Shown: one piece after another, positions 16,549 through 41,006 of the stretch
Layout of the letters: each line of letters opens with the position of its first letter
Numbering within the stretch: position 1 is the first letter of the stretch
Assembly: GCA_951406725.2 (NCBI GenBank)
Contig: OX597814.1
Coordinates: 99,014,001 to 99,078,000 of the forward strand
Direction of reading: 5' to 3'
Length of the DNA: 64,000 nucleotides
Origin: Octopus vulgaris
Lineage: Eukaryota
The notes under the pieces: model-generated
What the model saw: the letters and a program-made list of their open reading frames with translations, nothing else
Database searches by the model: none
What the model was told of the DNA's origin: nothing
Program-made: the position numbers and the translations under genes

Positions 16549-16846
16549 AACGTCGCCGTTTTCAAGCCTAGTCAGACTCATGGGCCCGGTTTCCTGGTTT
16601 CTGTGGCGTATGTGTTCCCCTCAGCTGGACGGAACGCCAGTCGATCGCAGCGTTACTCAAGAAACAGGAAAAGAGAGTGAGAGAGTTGTGGTGAAAGAGT
16701 ACGACAGTGGTCGCCACCATTCCTTGCCGGCGTCTCGTGGAGCTTTTAGGTCGTTTTGCTCAATAAACACACACAACGCCCGGTCTGGGAATCGAAACCG
16801 CGATCTTCCGAGAGTCCGCTGCCCTAACCACTGGGCCATTGCGCCT
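16548..16846 (-). mobile_element. tRNA-derived SINE
   Basis: Minus strand begins aggcgcaatggcccagtggttagggcagcgg...gtttcgattcccag (A and B boxes). Confidence 0.85.
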
Positions 16847-16951
16847 CTCTCTCTCACACACATACATACACACATATATATACATATATATGTGTGTGTG
16901 TATATATGTATGTATATGTATATGCCTATTTGTCTATGTGTCTATGTATGA

Positions 16952-16989
<38 letters not shown>

Positions 16990-17200
16990 ATATAGGGTGG
17001 CAAAAGATTTCGTAGAATTTATTTGCCACCAGCGGCCTAGTGGGAAAAAATTAAATAGTCATAGACCATTTATAAGTTCAACATCACAATCAAGGAATGG
17101 CCATAATAGGCCATTCACCCACTAGAAATAACAGCCAAAGCTTCAACCGCAAAATAACATTAATTCCGCAAACCAGGAGAAAATTAAAAAAACATTTACC

Positions 17201-17313
17201 CTGTAATTTCTTATACGATGCACCGTTTCATCTATTGTTTAATGGTAAACTAACCTGATTAAATTAAATCAAGCCAATCTTCCATAGGCCGATAGATTCG
17301 TCAGTAAGAACAG
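17201..17313 (-). ncRNA. Type I hammerhead ribozyme, copy 1
   Basis: Minus strand: ctg-ttctta CTGACGA atctat..atagat GAAA cggtgcatcg TA taagaa-atta-cag. Core intact and stems I, II and III all pair. Confidence 0.88.
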
Positions 17314-17685
17314 CCAGATCCGAGCAGATATTATCACGAGGCACCTCTATCCCTGCCTCGGCAATATCTGACCTAAAATTTTCAAATCATCGCACTCGCG
17401 CCAAATTTATCGGCAGCAAATATAAGCCGCTAATTCCATTACGGAATTAACCAGAAAATTCATAATTAATCAATATAGGGTGGCAAAAAATTTCGTAGAA
17501 TTTATTTGCCACCAGCGGCCTAGTGGGAAAAAAATTAAATAGTCATAGACCATTTATAAGTTCAACATCACAATCAAGGAATGGCCATAATAGGCCATTC
17601 ACCCACTAGAAATAACAGCCAAAGCTTCAACCGCAAAATAACATTAATTCCGCAAACCAGGAGAAAATTAAAAAAAACATTTACC

Positions 17686-17798
17686 CTGTAATTTCTTATA
17701 CGATGCACCGTTTCATCTATTGTTTAATGGTAAACTAACCTGATTAAATTAAATCAAGCCAATCTTCCATAGGCCGATAGATTCGTCAGTAAGAACAG
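17686..17798 (-). ncRNA. Type I hammerhead ribozyme, copy 2
   Basis: Same motif as copy 1. Confidence 0.88.
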
Positions 17799-18168
17799 CC
17801 AGATCCGAGCAGATATTATCACGAGGCACCTCTATCCCTGCCTCGGCAATATCTGACCTAAAATTTTCAAATCATCGCACTCGCGCCAAATTTATCGGCA
17901 GCAAATATAAGCCGCTGATTCCATTACGGAATTAACCAGAAAATTCATAATTAATCAATATAGGGTGGCAAAAAATTTCGTAGAATTTATTTGCCACCAG
18001 CGGCCTAGTGGGAAAAAATTAAATAGTCATAGACCATTTATAAGTTCAACATCACAATCAAGGAATGGCCATAATAGGCCATTCACCCACTAGAAATAAC
18101 AGCCAAAGCTTCAACCGCAAAATAACATTAATTCCGCAAACCAGGAGAAAATTAAAAAAACATTTACC

Positions 18169-18281
18169 CTGTAATTTCTTATACGATGCACCGTTTCATC
18201 TATTGTTTAATGGTAAACTAACCTGATTAAATTAAATCAAGCCAATCTTCCATAGGCCGATAGATTCGTCAGTAAGAACAG
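18169..18281 (-). ncRNA. Type I hammerhead ribozyme, copy 3
   Basis: Same motif as copy 1. Confidence 0.88.
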
Positions 18282-18750
18282 CCAGATCCGAGCAGATATT
18301 ATCACGAGGCACCTCTATCCCTGCCTCGGCAATATCTGACCTAAAATTTTCAAATCATCGCACTCGTGCCAAATTTATCGGCAGCAAATATAAGCCGCTG
18401 ATTCCATTACGGAATTAACCAGAAAATTCATAATTAATCAATATAGGGTGGCAAAAAATTTCGTAGAATTTATTTGCCACCAGCGGCCTAGTGGGAAAAA
18501 ATTAAATAGTCATAGACCATTTATAAGTTCAACATCACAATCAAGGCCGCTGGTGGCAAATAAATTCTACGAAATTTTTTGTCACCCTATATTGATTAAT
18601 TATGAATTTTCTGGTTAATTCGTAATGGAATCAGCGGCTTATATTTGCTGCCGATAAATTTGGCGCGAGTGCGATGATTTGAAAATTTTAGGTCAGATAT
18701 TGCCGAGGCAGGGATAGAGGTGCCTCGTGATAATATCTGCTCGGATCTGG

Positions 18751-18863
18751 CTGTTCTTACTGACGAATCTATCGGCCTATGGAAGATTGGCTTGATTTAA
18801 TTTAATCAGGTTAGTTTACCATTAAACAATAGATGAAACGGTGCATCGTATAAGAAATTACAG
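18751..18863 (+). ncRNA. Type I hammerhead ribozyme, inverted copy (predicted cleavage after GUA at 18850)
   Basis: Plus strand: ctgttctta CTGACGA atctat...atagat GAAA cggtgcatcg TA taagaa attacag. Confidence 0.88.
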
Positions 18864-18889
18864 GGTAAATGTTTTTTTAATTTTCTCCA

Positions 18890-18948
<59 letters not shown>

Positions 18949-19736
18949 AGTGAATGTATGTATGTATACACACACACGCATAATACCAGTTTCATTCAGG
19001 TTTTAATGCAGCAACACTCTTTAGTTCGAAAGCCGGTAAAAGAATTACAAATTTATATAATAAAATGATTTGCTCACTTTGCTCTCCTTGTTAATAATTA
19101 TAAGCAGAACCCAAATGCAGTGCCTGCATATATATAGCGGCAGTGGATGTGTAAACGTTATTGTTTCAAGGGCTAGGTTTGTCAGCCAACTAAAGTCACA
19201 TGAGGCCGAGGTAAATCCAGCTCCTTGCGAGATGGTTGCACCGTCACGCGAACTACGGTGGGTTTGTACTGAAAAGAGAAATAAATGTCACATCTGTGAA
19301 ATTTTCCGCAGAATGAAAGCTAGGCTGCAAAGCCACCTGCATCTACTTGTTTGTGCAATGTTCATTGAGGACATGGCTCTTTTCTGATAAGTAGTTGCAA
19401 TCAGAACACACACATATATGTGTGTGTTTGTGTGTGTTTGTGTGTGTGTGTGTGTGCGCGTGTAGTGTGTTTGTGTGTGTGTGTATGTGGATGCATGTTT
19501 GTTTGTCAATACATGCAATACAGCAATTCCGTTTTTGTATCAAACAATATATTACTTATCATTGCGTTACTATCAGTTTCGCGTAGAATATTATCATTAA
19601 ACAATTTTGAATTTCCTTCAATATAATTTATTGGCAATATTCGATAAGGAACTCAATGTGCCACGCTGATCAGTCATATGTCCTCACTAATTTGACAATA
19701 TAAATACACACAGACAAACCAGTTTTTATATATTTA

Positions 19737-40513: not shown

Positions 40514-41006
40514 TAGGTCGTTCGCCCTCATTAGGTCATTCGCCCTCATTAGGTCATTCGCCCTCATTAGGTCATTCGCCCTCATTAGGTCATTCGCTCT
40601 CATTAGGTCATTCGCCCTCAGGTCATTCGCCCTCAGGTCATTCGCCCCCGTTACATCATTCGCCCTCATTAGGCCATTCGCCCTCATTAGGCCATTCGCC
40701 CTCAGGTCATTCGCCCCCGTTACATCATTCGCCCTCATTAGGTCATTCGCCCCCGTTACATCATTCGCCCTCATTAGGTCATTCGCCCTCATTAGGTCAT
40801 TCGCTCTAATTAGGTCATTCGCCCTCATTAGGTCATTCTCTCTCATTAGGTCATTCGCCCCGTTACATGATTCGCCCTCATTAGGTCATTCGCCCTCATT
40901 AGGTCATTCACCTCCGTTACGTCATTCGCCATTATTAGGCCATTCGCCCTCATTAGGTCATTCGCTCTCATTAGGTCATTCGCCTTCATTAGGCCATTCG
41001 CCCTCA
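40514..41006. repeat. 18 bp minisatellite (ttaggtcattcgccctca), about 28 units, fused to a minus-strand SINE at about 40295-40513
   Basis: Units directly visible, with 15 bp and ttacatcatt variants. Confidence 0.95.

Follow-up and report, generated by a model that had tools for sequence, protein, structure and literature searches.

A putative pseudoknotted hammerhead with a rod-like stem II in a young non-coding tandem element of Octopus vulgaris with Penelope-type insertions

A hammerhead-like motif with an unusually long stem II lies in a 64,000-nt window of the Octopus vulgaris assembly (GCA_951406725.2, contig OX597814.1, positions 99,014,001 to 99,078,000 of the forward strand), raising the questions of whether it is kept by selection as an RNA, what its long arm does and by which kind of element it was brought there. 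The original prediction, made from the letters of the window alone, read the motif as a hammerhead of atypical architecture. Sequence inspection and folding bear out the hammerhead elements on the forward strand and define a type I motif at 18749-18856 (Table 1). From the sequences compared, we judge that this motif is a selected hammerhead variant within a known class of elements, with catalysis predicted. The reading that we consider probable is a type I hammerhead in a Penelope-mobilised (Neptune-type) non-coding tandem element, with a predicted cut after GUA and a bracing pseudoknot of 4-5 bp.

Table 1. Features of the hammerhead motif and of the surrounding insertion (positions in the window)
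Feature	Position	Strand	Remark
5' tail GGCUG	18749..18753	+	predicted pseudoknot strand, partner 18773-18777
Stem I 5' strand UUCUUA	18754..18759	+	6 bp here; 7-8 bp in most family-A copies
Catalytic core CUGACGA (C3-A9)	18760..18766	+	sequence
Stem II, 68 nt	18767..18834	+	proximal helix 6 bp, internal loop 6x6, then rod
Internal-loop strand CGGCC	18773..18777	+	predicted pseudoknot partner of 18749-18753
Stem II rod, 18 bp with 5 G-U, and apical loop UAAUUU	18779..18822	+	
GAAA core, quasi-palindromic stem III and GUA	18835..18850	+	GAAA = 18835-38
Stem I 3' strand UAAGAA	18851..18856	+	
Downstream hairpin (CAGG...CCUG in full units)	18861..18888	+	shortened here by arm end
Tandem arm, 3.2 copies of 483-bp non-coding unit	16986..18546	-	
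Inverted 5'-truncated arm, 345 bp	18544..18888	+	unit 176-483 then 1-38
Second hammerhead copy	18176..18283	-	core at 18272
Third hammerhead copy	17693..17800	-	core at 17789
Fourth hammerhead copy	17208..17315	-	core at 17304
(TA)n-rich target microsatellite, left	16874..16987	.	
(TA)n target microsatellite, right	18892..18921	.	

All conserved parts of a hammerhead, C3UGANGA9, G12AAA15 and U16H17, are present around three helices with helix I open. Stem II begins with AUCUAU/AUAGAU, continues through the internal loop CGGCCU/UAAACA and ends with AUGG-A-AGAUUGGCUUGAUU paired to AAUCAGGUUAGUUU-A-CCAU around UAAUUU; GAAA is followed by stem III, CGGUGCAUCG, and GUA, with the predicted cleavage site between 18850 and 18851. 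In a search with the core left free, 99 of 100 listed family-A copies (of 2,179) keep CUGANGA. Position 7 is the one free position of the hammerhead consensus, and it is the sole core position that varies among the listed copies, where A, C, G and U all occur, in spreading subfamilies. Pairing was tabulated over 28 subfamily representatives that we chose ourselves, one or a few per subfamily; 96% of the pair cells are paired and six pairs are changed on both sides, with such compensatory changes in each of stems I, II and III. The covariation looked for among genomic copies is therefore present over these representatives, although the rod of stem II contributes only one of its 18 pairs to it. 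Pair 10.1-11.1 beside the core is mismatched in 16 of the 28, which argues against a fast ribozyme. In a spreading subfamily (L219-L223 and similar), U-U flanks the core and the proximal helix of stem II has just three pairs; where these copies have U-U, many copies of family C show A-A or A-C. Stem I is 6 bp long in all four copies of the window insertion, which lack one U of the form most frequent in their subfamily (15 vs 52 occurrences). No Rfam hammerhead model matched at the gathering score over the whole window, nor even at E<=10 over 18550-18950, probably because of the long arm; the expectation that such a stem II escapes standard models thus holds for Rfam.

The motif is one of four hammerhead copies in a tandem-plus-inverted insertion, which had been missed at first, and the three cores on the reverse strand are identical to that at 18760. 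The 3' end of the tandem arm is of the 'long' kind (about 235), here 228 nt beyond the predicted cut, and the inverted arm, joined to it by a 3-nt overlap, ends at unit position 38, where the usual end is 131. The insertion abuts (TA)n on its two outer sides. Over the genome (2.8 Gb, 227 contigs), patterns for hammerheads with a stem II of 45-75 nt gave 834 matches vs 0 and 1,572 vs 3 for reversed-pattern controls, and a search anchored outside the core found 2,179 copies of this family (family A) vs 0 for controls. Family C (unit 470-475 bp) shares 72-76% identity with A across the unit, and its arm is a near-perfect palindrome. More distant from A is family B (L031-L080), with a unit of 583-586 bp and an arm of 59-61 nt, and family E (L207-L218; unit 545-547 bp, arm 25 nt) is 67% identical to B over about 200 nt. 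In both B and E, stem III is 2 bp with a GUAC loop, and the first 4 bp of stem II lead to a small internal loop, 2x2 or 3x3. A search for more distant families returned mostly known families or noise. No element-borne open reading frame was seen among the loci examined, and the non-coding tandem unit, the type I hammerhead in each unit and the many dispersed loci are those of a non-LTR retrozyme. The 483-bp element is young. Contigs from four presumed-RNA runs span most of two units, and contigs from four other such runs with four organism labels also cover the unit; contigs of this kind reveal neither ends nor strand nor circles, and they are not counted here as evidence of expression.

The rod of stem II is the most conspicuous feature of the motif. 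On the ribozyme strand stem II folds at -22.8 kcal/mol (z -5.0; none of 200 shuffles as good), against -12.3 kcal/mol (z -2.3) for the same arm on the opposite strand. A rod-like stem of about 69 nt with about five G-U pairs had been described from the sequence; the rod and its five G-U pairs stand, and the length is corrected to 68 nt. Over the 28 representatives the 18 rod pairs are paired at 98%, and the departures from Watson-Crick pairing comprise eight G-U pair types vs one A-C type (binomial p=0.04 if the types count as independent). This excess of G-U over A-C points to selection of the rod as RNA on the ribozyme strand, as had been supposed. Eight of the pairs never vary. Families A and C hardly differ in the apical UAAUUU region, and in a 25-nt bin across the distal rod their identity is 78%, like many other bins of the unit (55-87%). 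Genome-wide, the one short-arm match for the A/C type of stem III is a local duplication. Family E has a small internal loop like that of B, closed by just 3-4 bp. The helix that closes the internal loop therefore appears to be required, with no general need for the length of the rod, and the 25-nt arm of the related family E suggests that rod length may be dispensable for catalysis. The 18-bp rod would then mainly clamp the internal loop shut.

The internal loop closed by this rod has a partner in the 5' tail. The tail GGCUG is complementary to the loop strand CGGCC, and a pseudoknot of 4-5 bp is predicted, whose strands start right after the 6-8-bp stem I and the 5-6-bp stem II. With the register optimised, 4-6 contiguous pairs are found in all 22 subfamily representatives and in the window copy; with the loop register fixed, 320 of 335 occurrences, overlapping loci included, keep four contiguous pairs (87 distinct sequences), and the 15 exceptions are five junction-cut copies, one rearranged copy and nine single-locus variants. 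MAFFT aligned families A and C wrongly in the columns of the pseudoknot, so pairs across families were counted by script and the tool count was made on family A alone. Copies altered at the loop C's were sought after the pairing had been proposed. The outer loop C is altered in 211 of the 2,179 family-A copies; among 100 listed of these, 94 combine C-to-U with a corresponding G-to-A in the tail (by our own count, 30 loci on 10 contigs among the matches listed), two leave G-U, and four, at two loci, break the pair. The background of G-to-A in this subfamily is 5 of 101 G sites, and the swap of G-C to A-U is a single evolutionary event with a chance of about 0.05. The inner loop C differs in 5 of 2,179 copies, every one single-copy. 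At the third pair family A has C-G, and family C has U-A, U-G or C-G; at the fourth the states seen are U-G, C-G and U-A, and no C-A occurs at either of them in fixed-register occurrences with an intact flank; the fifth pair is open in 12 of 19 family-A representatives. These other changes represent few independent events, mostly transitions, which a G-U tolerant helix easily accepts. At least 4 bp with covariation link the regions of stems I and II, and the comparison of copies gives good support, from few independent events, to the predicted pairing of tail and loop.

This pairing revises the proposal that the internal loop docks on a bulge in stem I. The loop as the docking element stands, whereas the bulge does not, and the partner is the 5' tail. 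A distal extension of stem I by CUG/CAG was tried and rejected, being 77% paired with no covariation and with one of its three pairs broken in 12 of 19 family-A representatives; another distal extension, AUCU/GGGU, was rejected or weak. In full units the same strand pairs downstream, as CAGG with CCUG in A and as UUAGG/CCUAA in C. Base-paired contacts between stems I and II are common, being present in about 40% of hammerheads according to the relevant passages of Perreault et al. (2011; PMC3088659). A stem II of 60-70 nt with an internal-loop pseudoknot is not described in the passages of the literature covered by our search (including PMC6765202), and an earlier description may exist elsewhere.

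Stem III was thought to be a palindrome with a 2-nt loop, of the kind that is cleaved as a dimer. The palindrome is there, but a hairpin loop of 2 nt is sterically implausible, so the monomer stem III has 4 bp closed by a UGCA tetraloop, marginal in energy (-0.1 to -1.0 kcal/mol), and the dimer form is a 12-bp duplex. Unlike the dimer-type stems of 1-2 bp, which are too short for a monomer, a stem of 4 bp with a tetraloop makes dimer cleavage plausible, not obligatory. Self-complementarity is nevertheless kept through a double change, UGCA to UAUA, at bases that are unpaired in the monomer; GUAUAC and UUGCAA are further variants that preserve the palindrome, and an intermediate UACA form is present in one array. 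The minimum-energy fold of the monomer mis-pairs 3-5 core bases in 15 of 16 representatives. In 15 of 16 the active monomer lies 1.6-3.1 kcal/mol above the trapped fold, with the pseudoknot uncounted, and the swapped active dimer lies 9.6-13.5 kcal/mol below two trapped monomers, with no concentration term included. Conservation of the palindrome favours dimers without proving them, and dimer use is likely. Monomer cleavage is possible as well, because the active monomer is so little above the trapped fold.

The insertions themselves suggest how the element moves. Measured from the cut, the 3' ends of the arms fall at two fixed distances: about 131 and 235 nt in family A, 143 and 227 in C, and 196 and 300 in B. 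Wherever an inverted insertion showed both of its ends, a short end was matched by a long one, in 23/23 cases for A, 9/9 for C and 3/3 for B; the short end of one A case is at 71, the counts exclude one locus that had four end calls, and the pairs for B come from the listed values. In the passages on an anole element, such ends are explained by two internal start sites of the reverse transcriptase (PMC11167929). Tandem plus inverted 5'-truncated arms, two fixed 3' ends and (TA)n targets agree with the Penelope or retrozyme context that had been suggested, and because a non-coding tandem element combines these Penelope-type marks, it is taken as a retrozyme. It is best read as a non-LTR retrozyme moved by an enzyme that is presumably of the Penelope type. 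The 5' ends of the arms show no enrichment over the 20 nt that follow the cut (8 of 135 in A and C, expected 5.6, p=0.20; 0 of 27 in B); six of the eight fall at +7 to +15 and belong to arms about 600-1,090 nt long, a pattern noticed post hoc and uncounted. The whole unit (17699-18181, reverse strand) folds into many hairpins, at -148.5 kcal/mol on the ribozyme strand vs -111.1 on the other, and hairpins near the two 3' ends may be start signals for the reverse transcriptase.

A neighbouring fragment led to an autonomous element with an intact frame of 899 codons and the same tandem and inverted two-ended pattern, ending about 64 and 221 nt past a hammerhead of its own, which has a weaker arm of 55 nt without strand bias. 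We take this element to be a Neptune-type Penelope from its motifs; the label rests on them because its protein gave no significant match to Pfam or PDB. With the 483-bp unit the one autonomous family examined shares only a weak match of 13-23 nt. This young family (L193-L202; G000:C1:119512000-119530900 and others) has frames of 899-908 codons, a tandem period of about 3.6 kb and two 3' ends about 157 nt apart, and its endonuclease region returned 16,463 candidates. At L090 / L161, a family-C array occupies the (TA)n where an inverted autonomous Penelope-like insertion has its junction, a common target of both.

Taken together, the following course is proposed for the retrozyme. The RNA would be cut after GUA (18850), with the pseudoknot between tail and loop likely bracing stems I and II, presumably as an activating contact in place of the usual one between loop I and loop II. 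When only one copy is present, the 5' strand of the core is predicted to be caught in a false pairing with the 3' half of the palindromic stem III. Two tandem copies would exchange stem III into the 12-bp duplex and thereby release the core, so tandem arrays are probably where cleavage works best. Such cleavage would release monomers of about 483 nt, which may circularise as in other retrozymes, and the element would be mobilised by a Penelope-like (Neptune-type) reverse transcriptase. A bolder version, which we regard as possible but improbable, makes the motif a copy-number switch with a distinct architecture of tail-loop pseudoknot, rod and trapping palindrome, silent as a monomer or circle and active in tandem, whose UAAUUU loop would be a protein handle that links cleavage to two-site priming by a dimeric Penelope reverse transcriptase.

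The pseudoknot might instead be a brake or folding switch, which forms early and keeps the ribozyme off until a second copy or the protein of the element remodels it, leaving the tandem RNA as an uncut template. Both pseudoknot strands are transcribed before stem I can close, and many arms run through intact hammerheads, which means that uncut RNA was copied; in the anole element, as its description goes, uncut RNA is the dominant template and cleavage needs protein (PMC11167929). On the other hand, the strands adjoin stems I and II just where activating contacts lie, and such pseudoknots raised rates 20- to over 100-fold in the type II case tested in the relevant passages of PMC3088659, so that we find a brake unlikely. 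Weak catalysis would fit a different role, in which the ribozyme is slow or marginal and the rod and knotted fold persist chiefly because a Penelope protein or a host dsRNA-binding factor uses them as a signal for binding or packaging. The mismatch at 10.1-11.1, the spreading subfamily with U-U there and the nearly invariant apical region all suit this role, and the arm is never lost in A and C despite the short arm of the related family E. It is at odds with the strictly kept core, in which position 7 alone is free, and the identity of the distal rod between A and C is within the range of the other bins; we hold a binding signal as the main role to be quite unlikely. Against the main reading, dimers of Xenopus retrozymes failed to cleave in vitro in 8 of 9 cases, according to the relevant part of Li, Clavereau and Pollet (2026; 10.64898/2026.07.22.740005).

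Two further readings concern the geometry of the arm. In the version that follows the original prediction, stem I continues past a bulge through CUG/CAG, and the internal loop docks on that bulge by non-canonical contacts. RNAfold draws CUG/CAG for the window copy, in which the downstream partner of CAGG is partly lost, and a contact of this sort would be open to families B and E, which retain a U at position 1.7 together with a small internal loop. This version is very improbable for the broken and non-covarying CUG/CAG pairs given above, as their strand pairs downstream in full units and the matched G-to-A and C-to-U changes would be left unexplained. That the arm is a DNA palindrome or a chance hairpin carried along by amplification is hardly credible: the arm of family C is indeed nearly a perfect palindrome and young copies share their sequence by descent, yet folding differs between the strands, G-U types outnumber A-C types at the level stated, and pairing stays at 98% across families that are only 72-76% identical. 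We thus retain the braced, tandem-cleaved hammerhead as the probable reading.

Metazoan non-LTR retrozymes, as portrayed in the relevant parts of Cervera and de la Pena (2020; PMC7229834) and Li, Clavereau and Pollet (2026; 10.64898/2026.07.22.740005), are similar in their non-coding tandem units of a few hundred bases with one type I hammerhead each, their low GC, their palindromic stem III and their co-occurrence with Penelope-like elements. Their stem II is a short hairpin, in contrast to 64-69 nt here, and the octopus element, known here from genomic sequence, differs also in its Watson-Crick internal-loop pseudoknot, its 4-bp stem III and its regular inverted two-ended (TA)n insertions. 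Penelope-like elements, in the corresponding passages (PMC4209133, PMC11167929, PMC8557442), also insert into (TA)n as tandem arms with inverted, 5'-truncated ones, have two fixed 3' ends beyond the ribozyme and possess a stem III that is palindromic, whereas the octopus unit has no open reading frame. The spacing of 3' ends is about 85-105 nt here and about 157 nt in the autonomous element, against 30-40 bp in those reports. The hammerheads described there are minimal, with a helix II of 6-8 bp (PMC4209133), and the 'long helix II' in the passage of PMC13725137 also means 6-8 bp.

The nearest design is that of the atypical type III hammerheads in HDV-like RNAs of toad and termite and in Drosophila pseudoobscura (PMC7936874, in the part describing their structure), which also have a long arm, an internal loop, an extra hairpin cap and a 5' strand GCCR that pairs with GGC of the other arm. 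There helix I is extended and GCCR of its internal loop pairs with YGGC of loop II; the octopus motif is the mirror image, of type I, with helix II extended and an open 5' tail as the partner. The pseudoknotted hammerheads of Perreault et al. (2011), including human C10, have a short stem II and a knot that joins a loop with a tail or two loops, and the passages on them (PMC3088659) describe no internal loop under a rod of 18 bp. There is precedent for long arms with pseudoknots, for dimer hammerheads and for retrozymes, and nothing is overturned here.

Thousands of intact hammerhead motifs in one animal genome are invisible to Rfam, so genomic counts of ribozymes and retrozymes based on short-arm models are too low. 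The family also offers natural compensatory variants of a tertiary contact, which makes the question of activating versus braking directly testable, and the strict pairing of short and long ends in inverted insertions is a clean genomic read-out of two-site priming by Penelope. Elsewhere in the window, ARAGORN found no tRNA gene, and a tRNA-like head at about 16730-16845 (reverse strand), beyond the left microsatellite, suggests a SINE. An 18-bp tandem repeat of about 28 copies with 84% matches occupies 40514-41006.
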